From positions 9,067 through 73,066 of the forward strand of contig JAQXKO010000012.1 in NCBI GenBank assembly GCA_029010495.1: a stretch of DNA of 64,000 bases, written 5' to 3'. The notes beneath the pieces were generated by a model. It saw only the letters and a program-made list of their open reading frames with translations, did no database searches and had not been told where the DNA came from. Of this stretch, positions 12,422-62,598 are shown piece by piece. Every line of letters starts with the position of its first letter. Position 1 is the stretch's first letter. The translations under genes and the position numbers were made by a program. The DNA is from Clostridiales bacterium. Lineage in GTDB: Bacteria > Bacillota > Clostridia > Lachnospirales > Lachnospiraceae.

Positions 12422-12521
12422 ATAAATGAACGTTTATTTTTGAGGCGTGTTATAATAATAGCTCTAAAATAAACTCAGAGTTGCTGTATTGACAGTATAC
12501 ATAAAAAAGGAGGAGAAAAAT

Positions 12522-15500
12522 ATGAAAAAGAAGATAACAGCATTTTTTCTGTGTCTTTTGATGGTACTAGGTGCAATTCCTATTCAGGTACTGGCTGATA
12601 CAATTGTGCCGTTCAATCCTAGTGAAGAACCTCTTATAATCAAACCTTATTATCCTGATTTTAATAACAGCTTAGGGTACAATGCGCCTGCTTCGGGCAA
12701 TGGTGAGAAAATATTAGAGGCCATGTTAAATCAGATTAAAGATGCCGAAGACCCAACATCGACTAATAAGCCTGAATCATTTTTTGATGATACTCTGACG
12801 CCTTACGGCACTCAGAAGGGTGAGGCGTTTACAATGCTTGAAAAGCTTGAATTATTTGAGTATGTATCCTTGGGAAATAACTTAAAAGATGCAAGGATAA
12901 TGGATGATATGAGTGTCGATATTAAAACTAGTTTTGTTCCGACAAAGGATCAGACAATTTCAAGCGGACTTCCGGGATTACGTTTTGCACGAGGAGTAGC
13001 ATTTGACCCTTCAGGCTGCGGTCGGAGAAATTATGTAGCTCTTATGGGATATCGTGATACTCCGAATTCAACTACAACCGGTTCGATTTATATTTATATC
13101 ATAAATGCAGATACCAGAACAGTTGAGTGCCAGACAACAATGATGACAAATTCCTCAAAACTTCGTAAGTTCATTAATGAAGTTACAATGGTTGATTCTT
13201 CAAACTTCTTCCAGATTACTGCCGGCGACTATAATGGTGACGGACGTGACAACCTTGTTGTAGGTTGCGGCTGTATTAATGGTTCTGCCAGCATATATCA
13301 GTTTGGACTGGCAAATGTTTCCTATGATACGTCCGCAAAGAAGGCAACCGTTACTAATATGTATGAGGGAACAGAAGGCAAATTTCTTCATTCTGAGTTC
13401 ATAAAGAAGAAGATGGGTAATTCCAGTGACCTTGCCAACCAGCTTTGTATGTCCCTTGACACAGATGATCTTAACGGCGACGGAATTGATGATCTGGTTG
13501 TCCTTTCCTGTACCGGAGACATCACAAGCGAATATGTTTCAAAGGTACAAAATAAAACCTGTATACCACAGCTTACCGTTGCATACGGTCAGAAGGGCAT
13601 TAAAAACATCTCTTCTACTACAGCTATTGACAGGCAGAGTATTGTACAGAATATAAAAAGTAAGGATATTACCATGGCATGTCCCGATGTTACCATCGGC
13701 GATATGGATGGTGACGGAAGAAAAGAAATACTTGTTGCCGGATATAAAAACGAAACAAAAGCAAATGATGTTTTGATAGTTCCGGATGATTCAACCGGCA
13801 GTATTACATATGCATTCTTTGAAACGACCGGAAAGGGTACTTTGAAGCGCGTAGGTGATATCAAGGAAATTGAAAAGTCAAATGTCTGTCCGATTGCAAA
13901 GGACGACAGCCTTAGAGAACGCGAAACATATTTTCAGCAGCTTTGCATAGAATCTGTTGCACTCGATGGTGTAAATACTCAGGAATATGTATTTGTAAAC
14001 GGTTATTTCTATTATTTGAACGATTCAGGTAATCTTATATCAATTTCGGGTAACGGTGAAGCTGAATGTTCGGGATCATTTTATCAGAATCTGTTTCATT
14101 ATCTTCCCGGAAAAATAAATAATGTAGATGTAGATGAGGTATTTATTCTGACTTCATCTGTAGGAAACTATTTCGGAAGCAATAGCGGCAGAGAAGGAGT
14201 TGCTGTTATTGTAGGCTTCAAGAAACATTCTGACGCTAACAAAGAAAGTTCATACAATTTCAGACAGGCTATTGTGTGGGGAGATGATAATACAAAGGGA
14301 GAAAATAAAGAAACAAATATTATAGGTGTTGATAGTCAGGCACCTATGGAAAAAATCGGTAGTAGTTATTATGGTTTTGTTTCCGGTTCATGCGGTAATA
14401 TCGGTACTGTATTAGTTGGCGTTGATGTCGGCAGTGATACGGTAGTTGCAAAATATTCGGGCAAAGCATGTACATATACCGATCCAACTCCTGTAGCATT
14501 TTTACAGGCCGCTCCATATTTTTCTGAGCTTGGAGCAGGCAACAGTTCCACACAGTACAGTTATTCCGAAGGTTACCGTGTAACAAATGGTAATTCGACA
14601 GAAACTTCATACAACATCGGCTTAACCGTTGAAGCAGAAGCCGGACCTGTTAAAACGAGTATGGATATCGGCGCTGCTTTTGAGGTTATCGAGGAATTTG
14701 CCGAGAGTCTTGAAAAGACTTATACGACTACCTTTGAAGCCAATGACCAGAACCAGATTATCCTGCGTCAGACACTGATGTATTATTATTTCTATGATGT
14801 TCAGGTTTATGACAGTAAGACAGGAAAGTATGAATTTAAACCGTGCTCGCTTGTAGTATCTGCACCGCAGTATCCGGTATTAACATCGCTTTCAATTGAA
14901 CAATATAATGCGTTTGCAAGAGCATACAATAAGAAGATTGATGAATTTGACAATACCGGTAATAAGAAGGTAGATAAAGCACATAAAATGCAGGTAATTT
15001 CCGATGCGCTTATTGCAAAGTATTATCTGAATAATGAGGGAAATCCTTTCGCATATGCAAAGGATAGTTCTAACTACAAATACAATAACAACAGGTTTGG
15101 CGGTTGGGACTTTTGCAAGTCGACCAACGGCAGTACAGATAACTGGATGAAGTTATCATATGCCGGTGGTACGCAACAGCAGGCATATACAGTAACTCTT
15201 GATAAGGAAAAAACGAAGTCTGTTTCAGAAGGCTGTTATATGAATACCGCGATTATGGGCGGCGGCGGCATCGGACCGTTTAGTGTCTATGCCGGCGTAT
15301 CTGCAGGCTTTGAACGTCTTAAGGGACATTCGTTCTCGACGGCGTCAATTACCAGTACGGAAACTTCAGGTTCCGTACAGAATCTTAACAATGAACAGAC
15401 CTCATACCGCTTCAATTGGAAATTAATCGGATGGAAGACGGATGACCTGTTTGAGGGCATACCTTTTGTAGGATATGCAGTAAAGGACCAGGTAGCGCCT

Positions 15501-17045
15501 CCTCAGCCGGTTACTGATTTGAAGGCAAGCTTTTCTTCAGAAAACGGCGGTAGGGTAACGCTTACATGGACTTCTCCGACTATACTTACGGGTCGTAAGG
15601 CAATAAATTATTTCTATGTAAACTGCGACAAGGAATCTTCATATGTTGCGGCTACAAGCAATAAAGGCGCCGGCGTTGAGCATTCGGTTACCATTGACGT
15701 AAGTAATTATTCTGACAGAAGTGGTGCTACATTTACGGTATCAAGCTATAATGAAGCCGGTAATGCAGCAAGTATGCCATCCAACGAAGTTTATGTAATG
15801 TTTGTACTTACCGATCATGAGGTTATCAGACTTATTAACGAGGCCAGAAATGATCTGCAGACTAAGATTGATGATCTCAAAGCTCAATTAAATAGCGGAA
15901 ACAATGTATCAGTTGAGAGCTTTAATAATCTTATTGAAGCATATAAGGAAGCAGATAAACTGATTAATTCGCGCATTGATGATTTGGTGCTTGTTCAGAA
16001 TGCTTTGGAAGATAAAATGTCTGCAGCTGATGTATTACTTGAGGAGGCAATTAATAAAGTTGAGAGTGAACTTCTGACGGCTATTGATGAACTCGGCAAG
16101 TCAAATGAAGAGGCACTCAGCAAGGCAATTACTGACCTTACAGATGCTTATAAAAATGCCGATGCTTTGTTAAAGAGTGATATTGATTCTTTATCATCAA
16201 AGCACGATAGTCTTGAACAGGCAGTAAAAAATGCTGATAAGACTTTACAGGACGCTATTGATAAGGTTAACGAGGATTTGACAAAAGCAATTGAAAATCT
16301 CGGCAAGGCCGGTGACGAAGCTTTAGAAAAGGCTGTTAAGGAACTGACAAATGCGTATAACAGTGCAGATGCACTCATTAATTCCGATATCAGCTCATTG
16401 GCAGGAAAGCAGGCTGACTTAGAGAAAACAGTCAGTGAAGCGGATAAGGCTTTGCAGCAGGCAATTGATGAGATGGATAAAAAATTAACTGATGCTATTG
16501 AAAAGCTTGGCAACTCAAGTGACAATAATCTTCAGCAGGCAATTACTAATCTGACAGCTGTTCGCGAAAATGCAGATGCACTTCTCAAGGCAGATATCAA
16601 ATCAGTATCCGACAAGCTTACTTCTCTTGAGCAGAATGTTAATAAGGCTGATGAGGCAATTAATGCTTCGATAAAGAAGGTTAAGGATGATCTTGATGCC
16701 ACAAAGCTTGTAATAGAAGCATTATCAAAGAAAATTGAGGAGATGGAATCAAGTCATAAGGAAGATATTAAAAATGTGACAGCAAATATGGAAGAAGGCC
16801 ACAAGAAGGATATTGATGAACTTAATGCGGAACTTGAAATCTTTAAGAATCAGGTATCAAAGAATAATTCCGTTAACGGTTCATTAATCAAGGAACTTGC
16901 TGATGCTAATGATAATCAGCAGTCTTCTCTTGATACTAACAGGGTTCTTTCAATTGTCGGTCTCGGAATAGGCAGTGTTTCATTATTTGGCAATATTGCT
17001 CTCCTTATGTTAATTTTCAGAAAGAAGTCTGCGCTGGCATTATAG
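12522..17045 (+). CDS. 1507-aa secreted, C-terminally membrane-anchored surface protein: FG-GAP/integrin-like repeats, unknown beta-rich core, FN3-like domain, coiled-coil repeats
   Basis: - Start: ATG 12522 after AAGGAGGAG.
- Signal peptide: MKKKITAFFLCLLMVLGAIPIQVLA.
- Ca-binding FG-GAP motifs: GDYNGDGRDNLVV, DDLNGDGIDDLVV, GDMDGDGRKEILV.
- FN3-like segment: PPQPVTDLKASF..VTLTWTSP.
- Coiled-coil repeats with a 69-aa period.
- C-terminal TM segment plus RKK tail. No LPXTG. Confidence 0.8.
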   Translation: MKKKITAFFLCLLMVLGAIPIQVLADTIVPFNPSEEPLIIKPYYPDFNNSLGYNAPASGNGEKILEAMLNQIKDAEDPTSTNKPESFFDDTLTPYGTQKGEAFTMLEKLELFEYVSLGNNLKDARIMDDMSVDIKTSFVPTKDQTISSGLPGLRFARGVAFDPSGCGRRNYVALMGYRDTPNSTTTGSIYIYIINADTRTVECQTTMMTNSSKLRKFINEVTMVDSSNFFQITAGDYNGDGRDNLVVGCGCINGSASIYQFGLANVSYDTSAKKATVTNMYEGTEGKFLHSEFIKKKMGNSSDLANQLCMSLDTDDLNGDGIDDLVVLSCTGDITSEYVSKVQNKTCIPQLTVAYGQKGIKNISSTTAIDRQSIVQNIKSKDITMACPDVTIGDMDGDGRKEILVAGYKNETKANDVLIVPDDSTGSITYAFFETTGKGTLKRVGDIKEIEKSNVCPIAKDDSLRERETYFQQLCIESVALDGVNTQEYVFVNGYFYYLNDSGNLISISGNGEAECSGSFYQNLFHYLPGKINNVDVDEVFILTSSVGNYFGSNSGREGVAVIVGFKKHSDANKESSYNFRQAIVWGDDNTKGENKETNIIGVDSQAPMEKIGSSYYGFVSGSCGNIGTVLVGVDVGSDTVVAKYSGKACTYTDPTPVAFLQAAPYFSELGAGNSSTQYSYSEGYRVTNGNSTETSYNIGLTVEAEAGPVKTSMDIGAAFEVIEEFAESLEKTYTTTFEANDQNQIILRQTLMYYYFYDVQVYDSKTGKYEFKPCSLVVSAPQYPVLTSLSIEQYNAFARAYNKKIDEFDNTGNKKVDKAHKMQVISDALIAKYYLNNEGNPFAYAKDSSNYKYNNNRFGGWDFCKSTNGSTDNWMKLSYAGGTQQQAYTVTLDKEKTKSVSEGCYMNTAIMGGGGIGPFSVYAGVSAGFERLKGHSFSTASITSTETSGSVQNLNNEQTSYRFNWKLIGWKTDDLFEGIPFVGYAVKDQVAPPQPVTDLKASFSSENGGRVTLTWTSPTILTGRKAINYFYVNCDKESSYVAATSNKGAGVEHSVTIDVSNYSDRSGATFTVSSYNEAGNAASMPSNEVYVMFVLTDHEVIRLINEARNDLQTKIDDLKAQLNSGNNVSVESFNNLIEAYKEADKLINSRIDDLVLVQNALEDKMSAADVLLEEAINKVESELLTAIDELGKSNEEALSKAITDLTDAYKNADALLKSDIDSLSSKHDSLEQAVKNADKTLQDAIDKVNEDLTKAIENLGKAGDEALEKAVKELTNAYNSADALINSDISSLAGKQADLEKTVSEADKALQQAIDEMDKKLTDAIEKLGNSSDNNLQQAITNLTAVRENADALLKADIKSVSDKLTSLEQNVNKADEAINASIKKVKDDLDATKLVIEALSKKIEEMESSHKEDIKNVTANMEEGHKKDIDELNAELEIFKNQVSKNNSVNGSLIKELADANDNQQSSLDTNRVLSIVGLGIGSVSLFGNIALLMLIFRKKSALAL
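15915..16750 (+). repeat. Tandem in-frame 207-nt (69-aa) coiled-coil repeats inside the surface protein gene
   Basis: Units start exactly at 16044, 16251, 16458 and 16665, with partial copies at both ends. Consensus: AIDxLGK...ALxKAIxxLTxAYxxADALLxSDIxSLxxK. The DNA copies are clearly diverged. Confidence 0.8.
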
Positions 17046-50213: not shown

Positions 50214-50242
50214 TTGTCTTTTACAATAAAAAGAGTTATAAT
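50214..50242 (+). promoter_or_regulatory. Candidate sigmaA promoter of the pilus operon
   Basis: TTGTCT - 17 nt - TATAAT, about 85 nt upstream of the first pilin-like gene. Confidence 0.35.
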
Positions 50243-50328: not shown

Positions 50329-52665
50329 ATGATAAATAAATTAAAAAATAAGAAAGGATTTTCGCTGGCCGAAGTATTGAGCGTGGTTGCCATAATGGGC
50401 ATACTGCTTGCGGTAGGCGTCGGCTTCATGTTTTCAATTCAGAAAAATTCAAGACAGAAGCAGCTTGATGCCAAAGCAGAAACAATATATGTTGCAGTTC
50501 AGAATAAGCTTACGTCATTATATGCCGGCGGCTTGGGCTCTGTGTATGATCCTGCCTCCTACAGTGATAACAGTATGAAATGTTCAAATATCATTCCGGG
50601 TGACTATGTTGAAGCGCTCGGAGCTAAGATAAATGAAAACAGTATATATTATATTACCTCGGAATCAGGAGATGCATTTGATAAACTTATCAACGATGAG
50701 GTGCTTGATGAGGAAATATTAAAAGGAAACATTGTTATTGAAATAATACCGTATGCTTATTCAAACCAGACGGGAACGGCCAATTCAAATCTTCTTACTG
50801 CCGCAACCGTGTACGGAGTATTTTATTCGGAGGATGAAATAAATGTTGCACAGGATTATCTCAAAAACGGAGGACCTGCGAATAACGATTATCAATCCGA
50901 TTACAGAAAGCTTGATTACAGAATAAGTAATGATTCACGTGTCGGATATTACGGCGGAGGAGGAGTTTGCGGAGCAAATGTTACAGCGTCTTTGTCACCT
51001 AAGGTGGTAATATCTAACGGAGAGAAGCTCACTGCAACAGTTAAACTTAAAAAGCCTGCCGGCGTAATTGACAATCTTTTTTTCACTTTTACAATTACTG
51101 ATGGTCCCGGCAATTCATATTCGTTCTGTTATGATGAGAAGACTGATAAATATACATTAAATGATGAAAAAGGCACAGTTGCGGATGATGGCAATATAAC
51201 ACTGGAATTATTAGGTCAGAACTATTTATTTACAATTACACTTGATGATCTTTCGTCAGAAAATACGAGATTCACAAATCTTTACGGCCAAGAAAGCAGT
51301 CATGAACAGAAGCTGGTGGCAGGAACCGACATTACATTAAAGGTCGGTGTTGAATGTCCGAATGACGGCAGGGTTGAATACGGAGAAGCACAGGATACAA
51401 ACAACAGCCTATTTGACAAGTCGTCTTCTTCTGACACCGCCGTTATTTCAAAAGCACGTCACCTTCAGAATCTCGACGAAAAAGCATCACCTATTAATAC
51501 TATAGAAAAGGCTGTGATTGCCGGCAATATTTCTTTGGGTGACGGTAGCGAATGGAATAATACTTACCGGTCGGCCTATTATAATAATGTTTTTGCGGTA
51601 AATATCATCAGCGCTTCAAAAAATGATGAAAAGGTTAATATGGTTAATTTTGACAGTATTGTCAATAAAAACATTAAGAGCCTTTCGGGAGACAATGAAG
51701 GAAATTCCTGTATTATTTCAGGTGTTGCCATGAGTGGCAACACGGCAGCTCTTTTTGAAAATGTCGGAGCAGAATCCCTTACAATCAGCGATTTAATAAT
51801 GACAGGCACAAGAGCATATGGCGTTAATAATGCAGCCTCACTTGTCGGAATTGTTGAAGCCGGCAAAACATTGGTAATTGATAATTGTCAGATATATCTT
51901 GATGCTGCTACAGGGGATTATCCTGCTACGGGTGTACTGAACAACAATTCAGAAGCAGTAAGATTTATTCAGGCCGGTATGGCGGGCGGACTTGTAGCCG
52001 TCAACAACGGCAGACTGACGATAACAGATTCGGCTGTAGCTACAATTATCGGAAATGATGTGTCTGAAACAGATAATTATAATATTTCCGGAGGTCTTGT
52101 TGCTTCAAATACAGGAATACTCGATATTTTACAATCATATACAGACTGTTATATCTACGGAAGTCGCGCAGGCGGTCTTGTGGGAGATAATGGCGGAAAA
52201 ATAGAGATTTCAACCTGTTTTACTGCAGGATATATTGCAATTCCGTCTCAGAAAACAAATGAGCCTGATTATGAATGTGCCGGTTTTGTTCCCGGGGATG
52301 TTGATAAGATTGTCAACTCATATACGGTAATTGCTCCTTATCTGTCCAAAAAAAATCAGGGTATGTGGATAGAAGAGGGAAAGCTAAACGACAAGAAAAA
52401 AGGAATCTTTTATTCCACGCTCAGGAGTGCGGCGGAAGTTAAAAATGTCTATTACCTGCATGAATCCTCAAAGGTGAATGATGCCAATGGCTCGGAATCA
52501 TTATCAGGACTAAACAATGAGACAATAAACAGCATGCTGGCTGCGGCAGGCTTTATAACGTTTGAAAACGGTTCGCATCCATATAAGCTTATGGGTCAGA
52601 ATATCAGCAGCTATCCGTATCCGGGACTGACAGGACTTGAACAGTTCGGAGACTGGCAGCAGTAA
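50329..52665 (+). CDS. 778-aa modular type IV (pseudo)pilin: prepilin N-terminus fused to a large module with GLUG-motif repeats
   Basis: Class III signal MINKLKNKKG|FSLAEVLSVVAIMGILLAV, with Glu at +5. The C-terminal half carries GLUG-like repeats: AGGLVAVNNGRLTITDS, SGGLVASNTGILDILQSY, AGGLVGDNGGKIEISTCF, CAGFVPGDVDKIVNSY. Confidence 0.8.
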   Translation: MINKLKNKKGFSLAEVLSVVAIMGILLAVGVGFMFSIQKNSRQKQLDAKAETIYVAVQNKLTSLYAGGLGSVYDPASYSDNSMKCSNIIPGDYVEALGAKINENSIYYITSESGDAFDKLINDEVLDEEILKGNIVIEIIPYAYSNQTGTANSNLLTAATVYGVFYSEDEINVAQDYLKNGGPANNDYQSDYRKLDYRISNDSRVGYYGGGGVCGANVTASLSPKVVISNGEKLTATVKLKKPAGVIDNLFFTFTITDGPGNSYSFCYDEKTDKYTLNDEKGTVADDGNITLELLGQNYLFTITLDDLSSENTRFTNLYGQESSHEQKLVAGTDITLKVGVECPNDGRVEYGEAQDTNNSLFDKSSSSDTAVISKARHLQNLDEKASPINTIEKAVIAGNISLGDGSEWNNTYRSAYYNNVFAVNIISASKNDEKVNMVNFDSIVNKNIKSLSGDNEGNSCIISGVAMSGNTAALFENVGAESLTISDLIMTGTRAYGVNNAASLVGIVEAGKTLVIDNCQIYLDAATGDYPATGVLNNNSEAVRFIQAGMAGGLVAVNNGRLTITDSAVATIIGNDVSETDNYNISGGLVASNTGILDILQSYTDCYIYGSRAGGLVGDNGGKIEISTCFTAGYIAIPSQKTNEPDYECAGFVPGDVDKIVNSYTVIAPYLSKKNQGMWIEEGKLNDKKKGIFYSTLRSAAEVKNVYYLHESSKVNDANGSESLSGLNNETINSMLAAAGFITFENGSHPYKLMGQNISSYPYPGLTGLEQFGDWQQ

Positions 52666-52709
52666 ATAAACAGGTGCATTACGTAAATGATTACGGAAGG
52701 AGACATACT

Positions 52710-53333
52710 TTGAAGAAAAAACTAAATAATAACCGGGGTGCCTCCATCGTATTTGCATTGATCGCTTTTATGCTGTCGGCAGTTATATGCAGCATCGTTC
52801 TCGTCGGTGCCAATACGGCTGTAAAAAGAATAGCCGCCACAAGGAAAAGTATTCAGGAAAATGTCACACTTGAATCTGCGGCTTTGCTTTTGAAAGAGGA
52901 TTTAAGGGGCTGCGAATATCGTATTTGTGTTACAAAAACCAAAACAAATACCGGTAATGACGTTGTGATCGACAGAGAATCAATGCCTGACACATTGCTT
53001 GCCGAAAAGCTTGCAAAAGCAATTGACGAAGGCGAGGCTAATGAACTTATAAACGGACACGGAGATTTTGTTATAAGTACCTCCGATAAGATAATGTCAG
53101 ATGTTAATGTGTCATTTGTTGTCAGCCACACGGGTGATGAGACATTTCCTTATCTCATTACATTTACCATGAAAAGCAGCATAACGGGTGAGTGCCTGCT
53201 TCTTGATTATACTCTGCATCTTGACGAAACCGTTTCAGAAATCAACAATGGTAATACAGTAAAAACTATTGTGAAAAAGCAATTTAAATTTATTAATCCG
53301 CAAATTCACAATAGTGCAGATATGAATAAGTAA
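52710..53333 (+). CDS. Minor pilin-like protein (no Glu5)
   Basis: TTG 52710 after GGAAGGAG. LKKKLNNNRG|ASIVFALIAFMLSAVICSIVLV is a pilin-like leader plus hydrophobic helix, with Phe at +5. Confidence 0.55.
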   Translation: MKKKLNNNRGASIVFALIAFMLSAVICSIVLVGANTAVKRIAATRKSIQENVTLESAALLLKEDLRGCEYRICVTKTKTNTGNDVVIDRESMPDTLLAEKLAKAIDEGEANELINGHGDFVISTSDKIMSDVNVSFVVSHTGDETFPYLITFTMKSSITGECLLLDYTLHLDETVSEINNGNTVKTIVKKQFKFINPQIHNSADMNK

Positions 53334-53345
53334 AGGGATTTTGCA

Positions 53346-53630
53346 ATGAAAGCTAAGCTTAAAAATAATAAAGGCGAATCAATTACAGAGGCGCTTGTAT
53401 CTGTTTTGATTGTGTGTCTGGCTGTGTTTATGCTCTGCGGTGCCATTATATCTGCCGGCAGGATAAATTCGGAGGCGGGCAGCTATAACAAGGGCTTTGA
53501 TACCACGGACTGTACGGCAGATGATTTTAAGGTAAAAATTGATGATCAGGATTATAAAGGGAAAGCAGTAATTTCCACATATTACACAAATGAGGGTTAT
53601 TATTATTATGATGTTAAGTCTGGTGAATAA
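53346..53630 (+). CDS. Small minor pilin-like protein (94 aa)
   Basis: MKAKLKNNKG|ESITEALVSVLIVCLAVFML. Glu at both +1 and +5. Confidence 0.55.
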   Translation: MKAKLKNNKGESITEALVSVLIVCLAVFMLCGAIISAGRINSEAGSYNKGFDTTDCTADDFKVKIDDQDYKGKAVISTYYTNEGYYYYDVKSGE

Positions 53631-54192
53631 GCTGAGAAGAAAACTGAATAATAATTCCGGTATGTCCGTAGCTGAAATGCTTGTTGCCATGGCAATAGTT
53701 TCACTGGTAGGTTCGGGTGTGTTTATGGCAATATCTCTCGGAAGCTCACGTTATGCTGAAAGCATGCGTATGTCGGAATCGGAGGAATTGTTTGCAACAC
53801 TCGAAACTTCGCTTACGCATGAACTGAGATATACGACTTCGGCTGTCCTTGCAAATCAGGGCGAAGAGAGCGGTCATGAAGGGCTGCGGCGTGTTGAAAC
53901 ATTGTTCAGCAAAACCTATGCCGTAAAAAACAAAAATACTGCATTGGTTTCTGTTGACGATGATAATAATCCGGTTGAGTTTGGAGAGCTTGCCTTCGGA
54001 AATGACGGGAAGTACAACAGAATTCTTGGTACGGCTTCGTATCCGAATGAGCTTACTGCGAAGGCCTGTTTATATTACAGAGAGTCTGACGGCAGATTCA
54101 GGGTTGAAATATCCATAAAGGCCGGCAACACCGTATATGTGGAGTCGAGAGCATTTGAGGTCAAACCGCTTAACGGAATAACCATAGAATAA
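53608..54192 (+). CDS. Minor pilin-like protein
   Basis: ..KLRRKLNNNSG|MSVAEMLVAMAIVSLVGSGVF, with Glu at +5. The start (ATG 53608 or 53611) overlaps the previous gene. Confidence 0.6.
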   Translation: MMLSLVNKLRRKLNNNSGMSVAEMLVAMAIVSLVGSGVFMAISLGSSRYAESMRMSESEELFATLETSLTHELRYTTSAVLANQGEESGHEGLRRVETLFSKTYAVKNKNTALVSVDDDNNPVEFGELAFGNDGKYNRILGTASYPNELTAKACLYYRESDGRFRVEISIKAGNTVYVESRAFEVKPLNGITIE

Positions 54193-54208: not shown

Positions 54209-54601
54209 ATGGATAAAATGGTGTACATAAGAAATAATCAAAAAGGATTTGCTGCAATAATCTGGATACTGGGAATTGCAATAGTAGTAATGCTTTTACT
54301 GATATTTGTTCCGGTGTATAGGGAATCAAATAAGAAAGCAAGGGAAGAAATAGACATTAAGCACGAGCAGACTGCATATGATTCGGCAAAGCTGCGTGTT
54401 CAGCTAAACGGTCCTTTTTGTGCAATATACGATTATTATAATAAAGAGTTTGTTACGGGTCACGAAGCAGTAAATGTTGAGGCATACGGCGAAAGTGATT
54501 TACACAAGGAAATGGTAATACTTATTGAAGCCCAAAGTACTGAAAACATAAAAATGGAATGGGTTATTCCGCGGGAGGTACCATATGATATCTTTAAGTG
54601 A
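54209..54601 (+). CDS. Minor pilin-like protein (no Glu5)
   Basis: MDKMVYIRNNQKG|FAAIIWILGIAIVVMLLLIFV, with Ile at +5. Confidence 0.5.
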   Translation: MDKMVYIRNNQKGFAAIIWILGIAIVVMLLLIFVPVYRESNKKAREEIDIKHEQTAYDSAKLRVQLNGPFCAIYDYYNKEFVTGHEAVNVEAYGESDLHKEMVILIEAQSTENIKMEWVIPREVPYDIFK

Positions 54602-55391
54602 GCCTATATGGGCATGGTATTTCGGAATCCTTGCATTTGTCCTGGGGTCGGTCATGGGTTCTTTTCTCAACTGTATGGCATGGCGTACTGCCCACCATGA
54701 AAATGTATTTATGGGACGAAGTCATTGTACAGGCTGCGGACATACATTGTCATTTTTTGATCTAATACCGATTGCTTCATGGATTTTTTGCGGAGGAAAA
54801 TGCCGTTACTGCAAAGAAAAAATATCAGTAAGATATCTTATAACGGAAGTCTTCCTCGGAGCAATGTTTGTCTGGATACTTTTTTCGGACGGACTTACTG
54901 TTTTATGTATCAGGGACCTGATTTTTGTATGTATCCTGTTTACAATATCACTTATTGATATTGAAATATATGAGATACCTGATAAAGCCCACATTATTTC
55001 AATTGCATTATTCCTTGCCACTCTTTATTTCGTGACTGACAAGCCGTTAAAGATGCTTGGCTACGGAGCAATGGGTATGTTCCTTCTGGGAGGCGGTATT
55101 CTCCTGGTATCTCTTGCTCTTGATAAAATACTCGGTAAGGATACGCTTGGCGGGGGCGATATAAAGCTTATCGGTGTATGCGGTCTTTATCTCGGACCGT
55201 TAAAAACATTATTCGGTTTGATAATTGCATGTATTATCGGTATCATCATCGGCATTGCATGTAAGAAAACAGGCAGGAAGGAAAATGAGGAGGAAGCCCA
55301 TATTCCGTTCGGACCTGCAATATCTGCCGCAATGGTTATCATGCTTCTTGCCGGCGGCAGTCTGGAAAGCTGGTATTTGTCGCTTTTATAG
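54585..55391 (+). CDS. pilD: Prepilin peptidase / N-methyltransferase (A24 family, PilD/ComC-like)
   Basis: Zn-finger CTGCGH...CGGKCRYC. Polytopic membrane protein with the GGGDIKL active-site Asp motif. SD GGGAGGT. Confidence 0.9.
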   Translation: MISLSEPIWAWYFGILAFVLGSVMGSFLNCMAWRTAHHENVFMGRSHCTGCGHTLSFFDLIPIASWIFCGGKCRYCKEKISVRYLITEVFLGAMFVWILFSDGLTVLCIRDLIFVCILFTISLIDIEIYEIPDKAHIISIALFLATLYFVTDKPLKMLGYGAMGMFLLGGGILLVSLALDKILGKDTLGGGDIKLIGVCGLYLGPLKTLFGLIIACIIGIIIGIACKKTGRKENEEEAHIPFGPAISAAMVIMLLAGGSLESWYLSLL

Positions 55392-55450
55392 GCTTTCGTA
55401 ATTATTATCAGGAAAACTAAATGCTTCGGCGTTTATATATAGGAGGATTT

Positions 55451-56440
55451 ATGGGAAATAAACACTATCTCGGCATTGACATCGGACATGACCGTCTGAA
55501 GCTTGCCAGTATTAAAAATGGCAGGGTTTGCAAGGCAGTAGCCGTTCAGATGCCTGAAAATCTCATTAAAAACGGCCGTATTATTTCACATGAAATAATG
55601 ATTGAATTAATAAAGACAACAATGAAGGCAAACGGCATTAAAGAGAAATATGCAGCGCTTCTTCTTCCTTCGGATTCGGTATATATCAGAAATATTACAA
55701 TGCCTGTTATGACTGAGGATCAGCTTAAAATCAATCTTCCTTATGAATTCAGGGATTATTTTAATGAGGAGCTTCATGAGTATTATTATGATTATGCCAC
55801 CTATGAAGACAACGAAAAAGACGATAACATGGAGCTTCTGGCAGTCGCAGTAAAAAAGGATGTGGTTTCCGATTACAGAGCCATGCTTATAAAATGTGGT
55901 TTTAAGGTTGAGATAATCGCTCCGGCTGCATGTGCATTCAGAAATATTATTAATCTTTATGAGAAGAATGCTAATATATCCGGTGCAGAATACTGTTTCC
56001 TTGATTTGGGCTACAGAAATATTCATCTTAATTTTTACAAGGGGAATAAACATATTGCCACAAGAGAGCTTGAAAACGGTATAAGCACAATTTATAATTC
56101 CATTGCAAACGCATTTAATGTAGATACACATCTGGCTCATACATATCTTCTTGAAAATTTTGAAAACTGTCAGAGCAGAAAAGAATGTATCGACAGCTAT
56201 AATTCAATTGCAATTGAAATTTTAAGATCACTTAACTTCTATCAGTTTTCTAATCCGGACAGCCAGCTTAAGTCTATTTATATTTCCGGCGGCGGCGCTT
56301 CGATAAGAGAGATGATTAATGTGTTTAAGGAAGTGCTTTCAGATGTGGAAATCAAGGATGCGTCAGAGCTTATTCCTGCCGACAATTTAAGCAGGGAAGA
56401 AATTGACAATGCACTTCTGGCAATAGGAATTGCACTTTAA
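55451..56440 (+). CDS. pilM: Type IV pilus assembly protein PilM (actin-like ATPase fold)
   Basis: ATG 55451 after AGGAGGA. N-terminus YLGIDIGHDRLKLA and C-terminus IYISGGGASI. Position is before the PilN/O-like genes. Confidence 0.75.
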   Translation: MGNKHYLGIDIGHDRLKLASIKNGRVCKAVAVQMPENLIKNGRIISHEIMIELIKTTMKANGIKEKYAALLLPSDSVYIRNITMPVMTEDQLKINLPYEFRDYFNEELHEYYYDYATYEDNEKDDNMELLAVAVKKDVVSDYRAMLIKCGFKVEIIAPAACAFRNIINLYEKNANISGAEYCFLDLGYRNIHLNFYKGNKHIATRELENGISTIYNSIANAFNVDTHLAHTYLLENFENCQSRKECIDSYNSIAIEILRSLNFYQFSNPDSQLKSIYISGGGASIREMINVFKEVLSDVEIKDASELIPADNLSREEIDNALLAIGIAL

Positions 56441-56476: not shown

Positions 56477-57121
56477 TTGGCAAAGGAAAATACAGTTAAA
56501 AAGGCTTCTAAGCAAACAAAAAGACCTGTTAAGCAAACAATTAATTTTGCCCTTATGGGTGTAGAAAAAATTAACTGGTTTATAGCGGTTCCGGCAATTA
56601 TCGTAATTATTATTCTTGCTGCACTGTTTGGTAAAGTATCGGTAGTTGACAGATATGCAAAACTCAATTCGCTTAAGGCGGAGGAAAAAAGACTCGAGAG
56701 GCAGAGGGATTCCCTTATGGAGTCAATCAATGAATATGATGATGTTGACGGCGAATATTCAAGATATACTTATGAAAGCTTTAACGAGCAGGAGCTTTCA
56801 TTTGTTGACCGTAATCATGTCTTTAAGATTATTGAGGAAGAGGTTTTGCAAAATGCGGACATTTCATCATGGTCGCTTTCTCAGAATATTCTTGTTATGA
56901 ATGTTACAAATGTAAATCTGTCAGATCTTTCAAAAATATCAAAGAATCTCGAGGCATTGGCTGAAGTAAGCTTTTGTATGGTTTCAAATGCAACCACAAT
57001 CGGAACAGTAGATAATTCTGACGAAGCAGATGAAGAAAATCTTATAGTATCCGCCGTTATGACGGCATATCTTGTTCAGGATTATTCATCAATGTACGAA
57101 GACGAAGGAGATATGGAATAA
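56477..57121 (+). CDS. PilN-like bitopic assembly protein
   Basis: TTG start after AAGAGG. Basic N-terminus, one TM segment (INWFIAVPAIIVIIILAALFG), then a coiled coil. Assignment is by architecture and position only. Confidence 0.5.
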   Translation: MAKENTVKKASKQTKRPVKQTINFALMGVEKINWFIAVPAIIVIIILAALFGKVSVVDRYAKLNSLKAEEKRLERQRDSLMESINEYDDVDGEYSRYTYESFNEQELSFVDRNHVFKIIEEEVLQNADISSWSLSQNILVMNVTNVNLSDLSKISKNLEALAEVSFCMVSNATTIGTVDNSDEADEENLIVSAVMTAYLVQDYSSMYEDEGDME

Positions 57122-57705
57122 TGAAAGGTTTACACAGAGAATTTACCACAAAAGAAAAAATTATAATTGTGGCGATGTCAATATTTCTTATCGGACTGTT
57201 TTATTATTATTTTGTTCATCAAAGTGTGACAAGTCAGACAAGGCAGGCAGAGAGCAATATTTCAAGCTTAACCGCAACGAATAATGCAATGAGTATGCAG
57301 CTTGCGCATCTTAGTGAGGTTGAGGCAAGTCTTGATGCAATCAAAGGTCAGAGTGAATCGGTTTCATATCTTCCGACCTATAATAATTTTAATAACCTGA
57401 TGGAGTACTTAAACAATATCCTGTGCAGGACCAACTCGTTTAATATGCAGTTTTCAAATGCTGTTGCAGAGGGTGACCTTGTAAGAAGAAGTGTAGCAAT
57501 TACATTTGAAGCCTCCGATTATGATAAAGCAGTCGAAATAATCGGCAAACTTGTTAATTCAGAATACAGATGTATAGTATTTGATATAAAAATGTCTTCG
57601 GTAAAGGGCGTACTTAGCTATAGCAGAGTGTCTGTTTCATGTAAAGCAACATTCTATGAAACTTTGGTTGGCGGCTTTGCTGACGAGGGATTAACAGGCA
57701 ATTAA
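57121..57705 (+). CDS. PilO-like bitopic assembly protein
   Basis: One TM segment (IIIVAMSIFLIGLFYYYFV), a coiled coil, then a small domain. Assignment is by architecture and position only. Confidence 0.5.
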   Translation: MKGLHREFTTKEKIIIVAMSIFLIGLFYYYFVHQSVTSQTRQAESNISSLTATNNAMSMQLAHLSEVEASLDAIKGQSESVSYLPTYNNFNNLMEYLNNILCRTNSFNMQFSNAVAEGDLVRRSVAITFEASDYDKAVEIIGKLVNSEYRCIVFDIKMSSVKGVLSYSRVSVSCKATFYETLVGGFADEGLTGN

Positions 57706-57716
57706 AGGAGTAAAAA

Positions 57717-59429
57717 ATGGCTTATAAAAGATTAGGTGAGGTGTTAATTGCTGCCGGAGCAATTACGGATGAAGAGCTTGGCAGGGCATTGGCACTTCAA
57801 AAGGAGCAAAAGGGACGATTGGGCGATGTAATGATTCGCAACAATCTGATTAGTGAGAACGAGCTTATTGATGCACTTCAGATGCAGCTTGGTATCGAAT
57901 TTATCGATTTGTCGGCAGTTAATATTCCGACAGAGCTTGCAAGAGTAGTACCAAAGAATGTAGCAAGACAATATCAGATTGTTCCCGTTAAACAGGTTAA
58001 GGACGAATTATACCTTGCCATGAGTGACCCTTTGAACTTCATGGCAATTGAAGACGTCAGAAAGTCTTCACATAAAAAAATCATACCTATGATTGCAACG
58101 GCATCGGGAGTAGAACGCGCTATTGCAACACTTTATGGAAATGAAGGTGCTGCTAAGGCTATCGATGAAATGAAGCGTGAAAGAAATATCGTAGGTGATG
58201 CCGAGGAAAGCAGTTCTGAAGTATTTGCGGCAAATCAGATTGATGATGAGAGCAATGTTAACTCTGCTCCTACAATCAGACTTGTAAACTCTATTATTGA
58301 CAGGGCGGTACTGGAGCGTGCCAGTGATATTCATCTGGAACCGCATGAGTTTGAATATCTGGTTCGAATGCGTGTTGACGGTGTTATGAGAGATACCCTT
58401 AACGTACCGAAGAACCTGCAGAATGCCGTTATATCAAGAATTAAGATTATGAGTGGCCTTGATATTTCCGAAAAGCGAATTCCGCAGGACGGAAGATTTT
58501 ATATTCAGACCAAAGGCAAGAATATTGACCTTCGTGTATCCACTCTGCCAACCGTATACGGTGAAAAGATTGTTATTCGTCTTCTTGACAAGTCTGCCGG
58601 TAAGCTTTCAATGGAAGCTATCGGTCTTGAAGGAGAGGATGAGAAAAAATTCCGCAGGCTGCTTCGCCATCATAGCGGTGTTATCCTTATTGCAGGTCCT
58701 ACGGGAAGCGGTAAATCTTCAACCATGTATACCATGATTAATGAACTTAATACACCTGATGTAAACTTTATTACACTTGAGGATCCTGTCGAGTATAATA
58801 TTGACAGAATCAATCAGGTACAGATAAATGAAAAGGTAGGAATGACATTTGCCAAAGGTCTCCGTTCAATTCTTCGTCAGGATCCGGATATTATTGCCGT
58901 AGGTGAGATTCGAGACGGTGAAACAGCTGATATTGCCATGAGAGCGGCTATTACGGGTCATCTTGTTCTCTCGACAATTCATACAAACGATTCTGCCGGT
59001 ACAATTGACAGACTTGTGGACAGCGGATGTGAGAGATACCTTATTGCTTCGGCTCTTAAGGGCGTAATATCACAGCGTCTTTTAAGAAAAGTATGTCCTG
59101 AGTGTAAATACAGTTATATTCCTGATGATGATGAGCTTGAAATGCTTGGTCTTTCCAGAGCTATTATGGGTAATATTCCGTTTTACAAGGGCGCCGGATG
59201 TGCAAAGTGCTTTAACACAGGTTATTCGGGAAGAACGGCCGTGTTTGAAATTCTTCCAATCACAAGAGAAATTCGCGAGTGTATTGTCACAAATGCCGGT
59301 CGTTCAAAGATGGATGAAATCATGAACAAACAGGGTGTTGTACTCCTCAGGGAGAATGCATTAAGACTTGTTGTTCAGGGTGTTACGTCAACAGATGAAG
59401 TGCTTCGTGTAACAAGTGAGGAGGATTGA
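57717..59429 (+). CDS. pilB: Type IV pilus assembly ATPase (GspE/PilB family) with MshEN-type N-terminal domain
   Basis: Walker A GPTGSGKSST, Asp box, Walker B, His box, and tetracysteine CPEC...CAKC. N-terminal tandem RLGxxLI..G/N.I....L...L..Q motifs. Confidence 0.9.
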   Translation: MAYKRLGEVLIAAGAITDEELGRALALQKEQKGRLGDVMIRNNLISENELIDALQMQLGIEFIDLSAVNIPTELARVVPKNVARQYQIVPVKQVKDELYLAMSDPLNFMAIEDVRKSSHKKIIPMIATASGVERAIATLYGNEGAAKAIDEMKRERNIVGDAEESSSEVFAANQIDDESNVNSAPTIRLVNSIIDRAVLERASDIHLEPHEFEYLVRMRVDGVMRDTLNVPKNLQNAVISRIKIMSGLDISEKRIPQDGRFYIQTKGKNIDLRVSTLPTVYGEKIVIRLLDKSAGKLSMEAIGLEGEDEKKFRRLLRHHSGVILIAGPTGSGKSSTMYTMINELNTPDVNFITLEDPVEYNIDRINQVQINEKVGMTFAKGLRSILRQDPDIIAVGEIRDGETADIAMRAAITGHLVLSTIHTNDSAGTIDRLVDSGCERYLIASALKGVISQRLLRKVCPECKYSYIPDDDELEMLGLSRAIMGNIPFYKGAGCAKCFNTGYSGRTAVFEILPITREIRECIVTNAGRSKMDEIMNKQGVVLLRENALRLVVQGVTSTDEVLRVTSEED

Positions 59430-59434
59430 TATAA

Positions 59435-60655
59435 TTGGATAAATTTAAATATCAGGCCATATCCAAGGATGGTGCAAAGGTCTCAGGTGTTATGGAAGCA
59501 TTCAATGAAATGGATGCGGTCGAAAGAATTAAACAGACCTGCAATGTAATAATTAAGGTTGAGGAAATAAAAGAAAAAGGTGCTGCAGGCGGAATCCTCA
59601 GCATGGAAATCGGTAAGAAAAAGCTTGATACTAAGGCATTTACGCTTATGTGCTCGCAGTTTTCGATAATTCTTCACTCCGGAATAGCCATTACAAAGAC
59701 TGTTGAGCTTATTGCAAAGCAGATGACTGATAAAAATCTGAAGAAAATGCTTGAAGAGGTGCATGAAGACATTCAGGGAGGACGTTCTCTATCGGCATCC
59801 TTTGAAGACAGAGGAAAGGATCTGCTTCCCGTTCTTTTTGTTGAAACATTAAGAGCCGGCGAAATGACAGGTAATTTTGAATCTGCTTTTGAGAGTATGG
59901 CACAGCATTTCGATACTCAGACAAAGACGAAGCAGAAGGTTAAGGGAGCTCTTACATATCCTATATTTGTCATGATTATTGCAATCGTTGTAGTAATTAT
60001 ACTTATGGTGAAGGTAGTTCCTACATTTACGGCTATGTTTAATCAGTACGGTTCAGACCTTCCTGCAATCACAAAGAGTCTTATTTTCGTATCGAATTTC
60101 TTTAAGAAGTACGGAATACTCATAATTGCAATAATATTTATTGCATTTATATCATACAAGGTATATTCCAAGACTCCAAACGGCAAGCTGAAATGCGGAA
60201 GTCTGGCACTTAAGATGCCGGGATTTGGCAATATCAGCGTATTAAATGCAGCTAGTCAGTTCAGTAATAACATGGCTGCACTTCTTCGTGCCGGCATCGG
60301 CATTACGGAGGCATTGAGAGTGGTTTCGAGAATTGTTTCAAACCAGTATATGTCTCATGAGCTCGGTAAAATGGCAGGTATGGTAGAAGAGGGTAATTCA
60401 ATCGGTGACTGCTTAAGACAAAATCAGATTATGCCTGATATTCTTGTTGATATGGTTACCGTAGGTGAGGAAACCGGTCAGCTTGATGATACTCTTGATA
60501 CAATCTCGAGATATTATGACAATGAGCTTGACGTGGCGGTATCCGCACTTCTTAGCAAGCTTGAACCGGCAATGTTATGTTTTGTGGCAGGAGTAGCGGG
60601 ATATATTGTTCTTGCCATATATATTGCCATGTTCCAGATGTACGGTATTATGTAA
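59435..60655 (+). CDS. pilC: Type IV pilus platform protein (GspF/PilC family)
   Basis: 406 aa with duplicated GspF domains and 3 TM segments. TTG start. Confidence 0.9.
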   Translation: MDKFKYQAISKDGAKVSGVMEAFNEMDAVERIKQTCNVIIKVEEIKEKGAAGGILSMEIGKKKLDTKAFTLMCSQFSIILHSGIAITKTVELIAKQMTDKNLKKMLEEVHEDIQGGRSLSASFEDRGKDLLPVLFVETLRAGEMTGNFESAFESMAQHFDTQTKTKQKVKGALTYPIFVMIIAIVVVIILMVKVVPTFTAMFNQYGSDLPAITKSLIFVSNFFKKYGILIIAIIFIAFISYKVYSKTPNGKLKCGSLALKMPGFGNISVLNAASQFSNNMAALLRAGIGITEALRVVSRIVSNQYMSHELGKMAGMVEEGNSIGDCLRQNQIMPDILVDMVTVGEETGQLDDTLDTISRYYDNELDVAVSALLSKLEPAMLCFVAGVAGYIVLAIYIAMFQMYGIM

Positions 60656-60875
60656 AATGTATAGTTTTCGGACTGATTAACAATATATTTAGTTTAAAAT
60701 ACATAAAAATATCACAAATTATGTAATAATATATGTCATTTACAAAATTCGACAATAATTGATTGAATTGGTACTTTTCAAATTATATTTTATCAAATAT
60801 AATTAAGCCATAAGATAACAGCTAAGCAATATGTTAGTTGTTATAAAAAATTTAGAGTATAAAGGAGAATTTATT

Positions 60876-61313
60876 ATGAAGAACAATAATAAAGGTTTCA
60901 CACTTTCCGAGTTACTTATCGTTGTAGCTATTATCGCAGTATTGGTTGCAGTTTCTATTCCAATCTTTACTACACAGTTGGAGAAGAGCCGTGACTCAGT
61001 TTCAGTTTCAAACATCAGAGCTGCTTATGCAGAGGCTTCAACAGCTTTCCTTACAGCAAACGGAAAAGCAGTTGCTACAAATGGCAATGTAACAGTTGCT
61101 GCTCCTGATAGTGGAAAGCAGACAGTTACAGTTACAGGTGTTGTAATTAAGAGTCAGGCAGCTGATGGTTGGAGTGATCAGGCTTCAGAGCTTCCTTTTG
61201 ATATTGCAAAAGTTGTTGATCCTGGCGAACCTGGAAATTACACAATGACATTTACATTCTCACTTAAGGGAAGCGGAACAAAGCCGGAAGTTGTATTAGG
61301 TGCTAAGGAATAA
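60876..61313 (+). CDS. Major type IV pilin (145-aa precursor)
   Basis: AAAGGAGAA SD. MKNNNKG|FTLSELLIVVAIIAVLVAVSIPIF is a canonical class III signal. Strongly biased codon use and its own strong terminator. No Cys in the mature protein. Confidence 0.85.
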   Translation: MKNNNKGFTLSELLIVVAIIAVLVAVSIPIFTTQLEKSRDSVSVSNIRAAYAEASTAFLTANGKAVATNGNVTVAAPDSGKQTVTVTGVVIKSQAADGWSDQASELPFDIAKVVDPGEPGNYTMTFTFSLKGSGTKPEVVLGAKE

Positions 61314-61335: not shown

Positions 61336-61369
61336 AATCCCCTGTCAAATGACAGGGGATTATTTTTTA
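61336..61369 (+). terminator. Strong rho-independent terminator after the major pilin gene
   Basis: aatcccctgtc-aaat-gacaggggatt, followed by a T-run. Confidence 0.85.
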
Positions 61370-61623
61370 ATTAATAGTTTAATAATCTTTATTTAATTCT
61401 TTATTATTGTTTATTTGTATTAATAAAACTTTATTATTATTTATTAATTCTATTCCGTTAACTATGTAACTATTCAGTATGTATTGCAAAAGGCTGTAAT
61501 GTCTGATATACTTATATTGAATCCATGCGTATATTTTTTGTTATTATATTTTTTACAGTTTTATTTTTAACCGTTTTTTACTTTATGATTCTTATCTCTA
61601 TGATTATTAACAAGGAGGAAAAT

Positions 61624-62598
61624 ATGAAAAAAAGTAATTTGGGTTTTACATTATCGGAATTACTTATTGTTGTGGCAATTATTGCTGTACTTGTTGCGGT
61701 ATCGGTTCCGATATTTACAACTCAGCTCGAAAAGTCGAGAGAAGCTACAGACCTTGCAAATGTCAGGAGTGCGTATGCACTCATTAAGGCTGCCGTTTCA
61801 TCAAATGACAAAAAATCAGAGTATGAGGGCGTTCCTATTTACAGAAAAAATGAGGACGTATATATGATAGATGTATCCTTAAAGCAGAAGGAGGATGGCT
61901 GGACTACGAAGGAAGGTCTTGCAATCGGCGAGATTACCTCTGATGATTCGGTTCACTGGCTTGATGAACCATATGGCGGAGGCGTATGCCGTATTTATTA
62001 TTCAAAGGGAGAGTTATTTATTGACTGGGGATGCTCCGAGATTCTTTCAACATTTCAGCCGAATTATGATTATCTGACGTCTTTTAAAAATGCAATTAAT
62101 CAGGTAACAGTTGTGACAAACTGTTATAATTCTACATGTTCAAATCATTCTGCAATTAAATCTATCGCCAATGCAATAAGTAAAGCGGATGAAATATTTG
62201 CAAATGATATTAAAACATGGACGGCTGTCAGAAGTCCCAAAGACAAAACAAAGGATGACTATTGCTATGTAATGTCTACCTTCAGTATTGATAAGCTTGA
62301 GGCGGGAACTAAAATTCCGGCATTATATATGGATAAGACGGGTTATTATCTTGTAGGTTATGCTACTGTCAATGCTGCTCCGGATCCGGGCTCTAACGGT
62401 AATAAACCTTATAATGTCATTTCAATTGATCCGAATGGAAAGTATCCTTGCAGCAGTAAAATATATGACGTAAATTATCAGCCTGCAACACTTATTTCAG
62501 AGGGAGTAAAATATACTACAGCCACAAAGGCAGGAGAAGCATATAATAAGCTTGTCGGTAAATATCTTAAGCTTAACACGAACATGAAGGAAGAATAA
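61624..62598 (+). CDS. 324-aa modular pilin paralogue with a Cys-containing C-terminal module of unknown function
   Basis: ATG 61624 after AAGGAGGAAAA. MKKSNLG|FTLSELLIVVAIIAVLVAVSVPIFTTQLEKSRE is almost identical to the N-terminus of the major pilin. Confidence 0.75.
   Translation: MKKSNLGFTLSELLIVVAIIAVLVAVSVPIFTTQLEKSREATDLANVRSAYALIKAAVSSNDKKSEYEGVPIYRKNEDVYMIDVSLKQKEDGWTTKEGLAIGEITSDDSVHWLDEPYGGGVCRIYYSKGELFIDWGCSEILSTFQPNYDYLTSFKNAINQVTVVTNCYNSTCSNHSAIKSIANAISKADEIFANDIKTWTAVRSPKDKTKDDYCYVMSTFSIDKLEAGTKIPALYMDKTGYYLVGYATVNAAPDPGSNGNKPYNVISIDPNGKYPCSSKIYDVNYQPATLISEGVKYTTATKAGEAYNKLVGKYLKLNTNMKEE

Follow-up and report, generated by a model that had tools for sequence, protein, structure and literature searches.

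A candidate modular minor type IV pilin with a GLUG-type beta-helix is a short member of a family of mostly giant pilins in gut Clostridia

Modular pilins, as defined by Raynaud et al. 2021 (PMC8179133), consist of a pilin module joined to a further module of a kind not peculiar to pili. Here we describe a gene for such a protein in a 64,000-nucleotide stretch of a Clostridiales genome of the Lachnospiraceae (assembly GCA_029010495.1, contig JAQXKO010000012.1, positions 9,067 to 73,066). We refer to this whole stretch as the window and number positions from its first letter. The gene (50329–52665, + strand) encodes a prepilin of 778 amino acids, and we consider it reasonably probable that the product is a modular minor type IV pilin displaying a beta-helix at or near the pilus tip. 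The closest described proteins are PilB and PilC of Streptococcus sanguinis, which carry a vWA and a lectin module, respectively. With these the window prepilin has in common a class III signal peptide, a small pilin module, a short hinge and a bulky module known outside pili (PMC8179133, PMC9934059). The likeness extends to the setting, that of minor pilins of a monoderm type IVa pilus encoded together with a small I-like minor pilin, and to a proposed tip location and adhesive role. In the window protein, however, the graft is an immunoglobulin (Ig)-like spacer followed by a GLUG-type beta-helix, with no detectable sequence similarity to PilB or PilC past the alpha-1 helix, and its family usually runs to thousands of residues and is known here from sequence and models.

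Other systems also use enlarged pilins. ComZ of Thermus thermophilus is a pilin with a beta-solenoid module, and CofB and TcpB belong to type IVb pili; these are large minor pilins with an extra beta-rich module and are thought to be located at the tip. The ComZ solenoid is inserted within the pilin sheet and not appended as in the window pilin. ComZ, CofB and TcpB, which are cited in the discussion of PMC8179133, belong to other systems (competence and type IVb pili) and have no sequence relation to the window pilin. A functional analogy can be drawn with PilY1/PilC of diderm type IVa pili, a large, modular and variable effector that a complex of core minor pilins displays at the tip. PilY1, however, is a non-pilin with a C-terminal beta-propeller, whereas the window protein is a pilin, and Pfam scans of the latter found no PilY1-type domain. 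The final point of comparison is the architecture IPR012902–IPR011493, an N-terminal methylation motif followed by what we take to be the GLUG entry. Many relatives of the window prepilin carry both corresponding Pfam signatures, whereas the window protein itself would escape such a census, its Glug match being sub-threshold. Dataset S1 of Raynaud et al. 2021 lists this architecture for 6 proteins, where it is read as a pilin with an M26 peptidase module (PMC8179133). In the literature searched, the family is not described beyond this list of architectures, and neither there nor in the census itself did we find mention of its conserved core of 800 residues, of the giant lengths or of the place in the operon set out below.

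The window gene has an ATG start and an uninterrupted open reading frame (ORF), and its product is identical to NCBI entry MDD6102010.1, named 'MAG: type II secretion system protein [Clostridiales bacterium]' (MAG, metagenome-assembled genome). Its N-terminus reads MINKLKNKKG/FSLAEVL, where the slash marks the predicted cleavage site: a short basic leader ending in Gly (residues 1–10, MINKLKNKKG; 50329–50358, +) precedes Phe at +1, Glu at +5 and a hydrophobic stretch. Over its full extent, MINKLKNKKG/FSLAEVLSVVAIMGILLAVGVGF, this region has the form of a class III signal peptide. Both Pfam N_methyl (PF07963; 24.1 bits, cut-off 21.2) and TIGR02532 (22.8 bits, cut-off 16.3) recognise it above their cut-offs, and an NCBIfam scan returned N-terminal pilin-type matches only, all far under equivalog cut-offs. 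Glu15 of the precursor, the Glu5 of the mature protein, is invariant across the family. A prepilin peptidase (PilD) and a full assembly set are encoded in the same operon. The original prediction of a prepilin-type protein with a class III signal peptide is borne out, and judging from the sequence PilD would be expected to cleave it after Gly10.

The original prediction also placed four GLUG repeats in the last third of the protein. The string ISKARHLQNL that it quoted lies at residues 373–382 (51445–51474), and the repeats were all found where it had put them: AGGLVAVNNGRLTITDS at residues 552–568 (51982–52032), SGGLVASNTGILDILQSY at 587–604 (52087–52140), AGGLVGDNGGKIEISTCF at 614–631 (52168–52221) and CAGFVPGDVDKIVNSY at 650–665 (52276–52323). 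They are not confined to the last third, however. The solenoid (residues ~366–715) takes up ~45% of the chain, and its rungs number more than four, earlier ones including TAALFE at 472 and AASLVG at 502.

Whether this solenoid belongs to the GLUG type is less obvious from Pfam. Glug (PF07581) does not match the whole 778-residue protein at E≤1 and, on the fragment 521–674, finds a single stretch at 13.7 bits (E 0.09), under its cut-off of 20.5; on the whole protein and three sub-fragments N_methyl alone passes its threshold. Taken by themselves these scores speak against the GLUG assignment. Three independent lines of evidence nevertheless show that the C-terminal module is a GLUG-type right-handed beta-helix. 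In the first, positions 420–630 of a profile built from the family, corresponding to residues 452–696 of the window prepilin, repeatedly match non-pilin proteins annotated with PF07581, with domain E-values down to 3e-18; among these are filamentous-haemagglutinin-like, Big_2-containing and dockerin-containing proteins. In the second, a reciprocal hidden Markov model (HMM) made from the Glug-annotated non-pilin segments only scored the window prepilin at 31.7 bits over residues 457–633, against 5.3 bits for the best of 500 shuffles of the window sequence. The third is structural. Residues 365–778, modelled apart with AlphaFold, gave a mean predicted local distance difference test score (pLDDT) of 82.4 and a predicted template modelling score (pTM) of 0.90, and Foldseek placed this model closest to PDB entry 3n6z (E 2.5e-4, prob 1.00, template modelling (TM) score 0.56 relative to target). 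This entry is B. ovatus BACOVA_03286, a 'putative IgA1 protease' and presumably itself a member of the Glug family. It is followed by 7uvk and 7uvl_P (IgA1 proteases of G. haemolysans and S. pneumoniae) and then by pectate lyases and other right-handed parallel beta-helices, and the L. reuteri SRRP adhesin is also among the fold matches. A profile search of the PDB with the family alignment found pilin alpha-1 helices only, plus a weak match to 3n6z (E 0.41).

These best structural matches share with the window module GLUG-type rungs (AGGLVG), but they are non-pilins, and the protease helix serves as a gate to a zinc active site, which the window pilin lacks. Longer members of the pilin family clear the Pfam Glug threshold (55.9 and 42 bits; 2 of the 17 in the first set of relatives), and precomputed Pfam annotations give many relatives with N_methyl and Glug together. 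The fold prediction and the screen for pilin–GLUG co-occurrence thus turned out in favour of the assignment, whereas in the Pfam scan only the N_methyl half could be recovered from the window protein itself. We are highly confident that the protein is a prepilin with a GLUG-type beta-helix. As helices of this type are also found in haemagglutinin-like and other non-pilin proteins, its combination with N_methyl falls within the published definition of a modular pilin, as had been proposed.

The AlphaFold (AF2) model of the whole chain (pLDDT 80.1, pTM 0.71) arranges the protein as a pilin module, an Ig-like sandwich, the beta-helix and a small C-terminal piece. The pilin alpha-1 helix occupies residues 11–66 (50359–50526, +), as delimited by the modelled helix (13–66), conservation and matches of the profile to PDB pilins; E15, D47, A50 and Q58 are invariant in it, and of the longer stretches of the family its alpha-1C portion (LRQKELDAKAETIY-like) is the best conserved, with a mean column identity of 0.65. 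The globular pilin part follows at residues 67–220 (50527–50988, +), with modelled strands at 107–110, 134–142, 156–167 and 205–209. Its sheet closes with the invariant hinge motif GYYGG (206–210; G206, Y207, G209 and G210 invariant), next to a low-confidence hinge at 212–219 (pLDDT <50). Residues 221–365 (50989–51423, +) form an Ig-like beta-sandwich spacer, with strands between 225 and 359. Foldseek with the whole model returned nothing at E≤1e-3 and was dominated by Ig-like and V-set domains (~125–156 aligned columns, TM ~0.5 relative to target); the output gives no query positions for these, and their length suggests that they belong to residues 221–365.

The right-handed parallel beta-helix is delimited at residues 366–715 (51424–52473, +) by the C-terminal model, Foldseek, the family profile and the reciprocal HMM. 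Its cap helix sits in the invariant motif RHLQNLD (377–383) and the solenoid proper runs from ~394 to 710. The remaining residues, 716–778 (52474–52662, +), make up a small alpha/beta piece, placed by alignments, the positions of motifs in giant relatives and the AF2 model. It ends in FGDWQ, the counterpart of HYGDW, a family motif at which the conserved core stops and, in the giants, every repeated module as well. Mean column identity reaches 0.68 in the cap and is ~0.41–0.46 in the globular pilin part, the Ig-like domain and the helix, so that conservation peaks in alpha-1C and the cap motif, fitting a conserved docking module. Past residue 383 invariance is limited to Gly, Leu, Phe, Ile and Asn, a pattern that, as far as alignment can tell, is that of a solenoid core and not of an active site.

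The window prepilin turns out to be a small member of its family. A search with the single sequence gave 17 relatives, and a profile search gave 65, mostly of 1,400–2,270 aa; the family alignment was made from a 28-member set. An exhaustive profile search of 1.84 billion representatives yielded 70,376 matches at E≤1e-3 and 4,071 clusters at E≤1e-30, a number that may include non-pilin GLUG-rich proteins. All of the 150 best matches (≥555 bits) align with profile positions ~5–800 from their own N-terminus, and most of them are 2,000–5,700 aa long. The 197 members that were retrieved have a median length of 2,339 aa; the longest has 5,704 aa, and only 16 have 900 aa or fewer, several of these being fragments. 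Nearly all have the cleavage-site pattern G/F..E, the exceptions looking like mis-called starts. The giants repeat the unit of cap, beta-helix and HYGDW up to five times and add 1,500–5,000 residues past the HYGDW boundary; three members (P0136, P0090 and P0156) reach up to 5,704 aa and up to five HYGDW-terminated beta-helix modules. Provided that they undergo pilin processing, the giants would count among the largest pilins recorded. Anchoring to the cell wall through LPXTG was considered and rejected, the motif being present in no family member examined.

The 778-residue protein corresponds to the conserved core of this family and ends exactly at the first module boundary. Its short length is real, because the 90%-identity cluster to which it belongs has four further members of 778 aa, from other assemblies, and comparable short forms recur elsewhere in the family at 743–786 aa (P0009, P0010 and P0115). 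The family is thus a very large, experimentally unstudied one of mostly giant pilins, and the fusion is therefore not one of a kind. Both the size and the fusion had been thought exceptional in the original prediction. Neither view holds: 778 aa is among the shortest lengths in a family whose members typically have ~2,300–2,500 aa, and N_methyl and Glug occur together in many relatives, as an architecture already catalogued in 2021. It is the family, rather than the small copy in the window, that deserves attention.

The genes that follow the prepilin gene make the window locus a complete monoderm type IVa pilus locus. Three small minor pilins come first: a 219-aa protein without Glu5 (NNNRG/ASIVF; 52674–53333, +), a 94-aa protein (NNKG/ESITE; 53346–53630, +) and a 200-aa protein (NNSG/MSVAE; 53590–54192, +), which we call K-like, I-like and J-like, respectively, and which are retained beside the large pilin in related loci. 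In the J-like protein TIGR02532 scores 16.7 bits against a cut-off of 16.3, and N_methyl, at 20.6 bits, falls just under its own. There follow a 130-aa pilin-like protein without Glu5 (NQKG/FAAII; 54209–54601, +), whose ORF overlaps the start of pilD, giving the locus two Glu5-less pilin-like proteins, and then the assembly genes: the prepilin peptidase PilD (54585–55391, +; A24_N_bact 97.5 bits, Peptidase_A24 46.7 bits), PilM (55421–56440, +; PilM_2 94.9 bits), a PilN-like protein named from its position alone (56477–57121, +), PilO (57121–57705, +; T2SSM 29.2 bits), the extension ATPase PilB (57717–59429, +; T2SSE 443.9 bits, MshEN 70.5 bits) and the platform protein PilC (59435–60655, +; T2SSF 184 bits). 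PilD, PilM, PilO, PilB and PilC are thus all encoded within 8 kb on the strand of the prepilin gene. A 160-aa candidate major pilin (60831–61313, +; N_methyl 35.0 bits, TIGR02532 29.7 bits) is followed by a strong terminator-like hairpin (61336–61361, +; terminator scan). At the other end, the 286-bp gap 5' of the prepilin ATG holds a purine-rich stretch and a promoter-like site (TTGTCT, 17 nt, TATAAT; 50214–50242, +), weak evidence from a consensus scan, and an Rfam scan of the whole window found no riboswitch or other RNA family 5' of the operon. Housekeeping genes flank the pilus locus on both sides.

The same setting is found around relatives. A scan of one genome per species, using two peptide patterns and a 10-member alignment, located relatives in at least 118 genomes, of Lachnospiraceae, Oscillospiraceae, Erysipelotrichaceae/Bulleidia and Agathobacter rectalis, with Oscillibacter sp. 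MSJ-31, Vescimonas sanitatis (strain MH37-1) and Hominenteromicrobium mulieris (strain CLA-AA-H250) as cultured carriers; Ventrimonas faecis CLA-AP-H27 is a further one. We kept 80 loci, with 63 complete homologue ORFs (median 2,453 aa, one of 900 aa or fewer); the signal-peptide motif is present in 78 of the 80. By tblastn with the window proteins, PilM was found around 45 homologues and PilD around 44, and the small pilins around 38 (I-like), 30 (J-like) and 23 (K-like). The gene order of the window (large pilin, K, I, J, pilD, pilM) recurs in its closest relatives, L006–L014. On two long contigs pilB-pilT-pilC-pilA-pilD-pilM-(N)-pilO precede the homologue, and in loci L001 and L003 pilB is followed by pilT, unlike in the window. 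The homologue on the long contigs has proteins of about 220, 96 and 166 aa beside it, the corresponding sizes in Ventrimonas being 263, 137 and 195 aa; blastp identifies these flanking proteins as counterparts of the 219-, 94- and 200-aa pilins of the window, the K-like one matching L001_221 and L003_263. Of the K-like protein 22 orthologues were recovered; wherever their cleavage site can be recognised, Glu5 is absent, whereas the I- and J-like orthologues retain it. The large pilin and its three small neighbours therefore form a recurring set of four co-encoded minor pilins, one of them without Glu5. Four small pilins had been predicted to follow the large one and to form a priming complex with it. 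All four are present, one of the neighbours lacking Glu5 as such a complex would have it, but only three are conserved: the 130-aa protein has tblastn matches in only 3 loci, all over or beside matches to the 160-aa major pilin. Six of the loci (L031, L039, L069, L009, L074 and L079) come from MAGs labelled Akkermansia muciniphila, Bacteroides stercoris, Moraxellaceae, Duodenibacillus or Bacteroidaceae; since the same Clostridia-type pilus genes flank these homologues, mis-binning of the contigs is probable.

In type IV pili, co-encoded minor pilins form an assembly-priming complex that is capped by a subunit without Glu5 (Pelicic 2023, PMC10191384). The pili grow from tip to base and the priming complex stays at the tip, where bulky modular pilins are tolerated (PMC10191384, PMC8179133). 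By analogy, we suggest that PilD would cleave the window prepilin after Gly10, and that its pilin module would dock with the three small minor pilins into such a complex, the large pilin filling the fourth ('H') slot of the usual four-member set. Given this direction of growth, it would then end at or just below the distal tip, with the Ig-like spacer holding the beta-helix off the fibre as a binding surface. In the giant relatives the same beta-helix would lie at the base of a long fibre made up of beta-helix modules in tandem. That the window protein is a minor pilin of this pilus we regard as very likely. A tip-located, adhesive role, as the original prediction had it, is plausible by analogy, and we lean only slightly towards the protein being a tip adhesin; adhesion is less certain for the short form than for the giants, because the short form holds only the family-conserved core. 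On a wider view, to which we can give only tentative credence, the 778-aa protein would be the minimal core of an undescribed family of giant pilins (median ~2,400 aa, up to 5,704 aa) that fills the fourth core minor-pilin slot in type IVa operons of dominant gut Clostridia. Such a family would be a monoderm counterpart of PilY1, presenting at the tip a fibre of tandem GLUG beta-helices whose distal parts vary by species.

Besides the sub-threshold Glug score, several observations weigh against a minor pilin that displays its beta-helix at the tip. The small minor pilins have no detectable similarity to the sequence families GspI/J/K and PilV/W/X. On the large pilin TIGR01708 (gspH) scores 14.8 bits against a cut-off of 80; for its neighbours the corresponding scores are 11.8 against 130 bits for GspK and 12.6 against 44.35 bits for gspI, and profiles of the K- and J-like proteins searched against the PDB recovered no GspK, GspJ, PilX or PilW, the best results being chance matches or confined to alpha-1. 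The assignment of H, I, J and K slots thus follows from size, order and Glu5 only. No pilin structure is among the top Foldseek matches listed for the whole model, and the pilin fold of the N-terminal module is deduced from modelled secondary structure and the sequence of alpha-1. There is no gene for the retraction ATPase PilT within the 64-kb window; either pilT is encoded elsewhere or the window pilus is non-retractile. Ligand specificity may lie in the variable distal modules, which the window form does not have, and the processing of the window pilin, its incorporation into the pilus and its binding are all predicted only.

The alternative that survives best takes the protein to be a structural priming subunit only, equivalent to GspH/PilH, without which assembly would not begin or the fibre would not cross the thick wall, the Ig-like domain and the beta-helix of the short form being a ligand-free stalk; adhesion would then be left to the distal modules of the giants. 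Several of the observations above agree with this. The whole 778-aa protein is the part conserved in the family (profile positions ~5–800), its beta-helix being conserved to the same degree as the globular pilin domain (0.45 and 0.46, respectively) and its invariant helix residues being core positions, and it is past this part, beyond HYGDW, that the giants carry their extra residues. Beta-helices of surface proteins nevertheless commonly bind ligands, as the presence of the L. reuteri adhesin among the fold matches illustrates, and the recurrence of short forms suggests that these function as they stand. Structural and adhesive roles are moreover compatible, and we consider a purely structural role unlikely.

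A protein that is not part of a filament at all, either anchored in the membrane by its N-terminal helix after cleavage or pushed out by a short pseudopilus, would agree with the NCBI name, which refers to type II secretion, and with the lack of pilT in the window; very large subunits would also fit a fibre poorly. Against this, PilM/N/O, PilB, PilC and the major pilin make up the Clostridial type IVa set, to which related loci add pilT, and the invariant Glu5 is typical of subunits that pack into a filament core. A rough estimate from the rung count further gives the protein a reach of only ~10 nm beyond the pilin module, so that unless carried by a fibre it would probably not extend past a Gram-positive wall. 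We therefore hold a non-filament surface protein to be quite improbable.

The displayed module could also be an enzyme: a pectate-lyase-type lyase or hydrolase acting on polysaccharides, or a peptidase resembling M26. Below the top Foldseek matches there are indeed pectate lyases, polygalacturonases and alginate lyases, at E-values of 0.01 to a few, and Raynaud et al. term the IPR012902–IPR011493 architecture a predicted M26 peptidase (PMC8179133). The TM scores to most lyases are low, however (0.23–0.29), and the invariant columns of the helix contain no conserved acidic or basic cluster. As to a peptidase, the zinc motif HExxH occurs neither in the window protein nor in any of the 197 family members, no match to Peptidase_M26_C or another catalytic domain was found, and the best structural matches are to the non-catalytic N-terminal beta-helix of IgA1 proteases, which in the S. 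pneumoniae enzyme acts as a gate (PMC7695701). Since no member has HExxH and the matching protease domain is a gate and not the active site, the beta-helix of the window pilin is, on its sequence, most likely non-catalytic. We reject M26 peptidase identity and regard a pilus-borne enzyme of any kind as very improbable. The published M26 reading of these pilins (PMC8179133) appears to read too much into the GLUG signature.

That the gene is a truncated remnant of a giant pilin gene is hardly credible and was rejected: its nearest relatives are much longer (P0002, 1,281 aa; L005, 2,536 aa), but the frame stops right after the module-boundary FGDWQ, the next gene begins 9 nt on with no leftover coding sequence between, and the 778-aa cluster members of the four other assemblies are joined by other complete short members.

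A modular minor pilin of this kind would be of interest because type IV pili are among the few organelles of adhesion or motility in the Lachnospiraceae and Oscillospiraceae, which are abundant in the gut and hard to study, and a beta-helix pilin encoded beside priming minor pilins is an obvious candidate for the end of the fibre that binds. With only the core, the short form has a size that suits expression and structure determination and offers a practical entry point to the family. The absence of the zinc site from every member also corrects the published reading of a pilus-borne M26 peptidase.

Three other ORFs of the window may be mentioned. Past the terminator of the 160-aa pilin lies a second pilin ORF, of 357 aa (61525–62598, +; N_methyl 26.1 bits). 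Its class III signal peptide begins only at about residue 35 (MKKSNLG/FTLSE), so that the listed start is probably too far upstream, and neither Pfam nor NCBIfam matches anything in its ~250 C-terminal residues; it may be another enlarged or modular pilin. Farther away, a 1,518-aa protein with FG-GAP-like repeats (12489–17045, +) is a possible surface protein, and a GH16 glycoside hydrolase with two CBM_4_9 modules is encoded at 2177–4576 (+).

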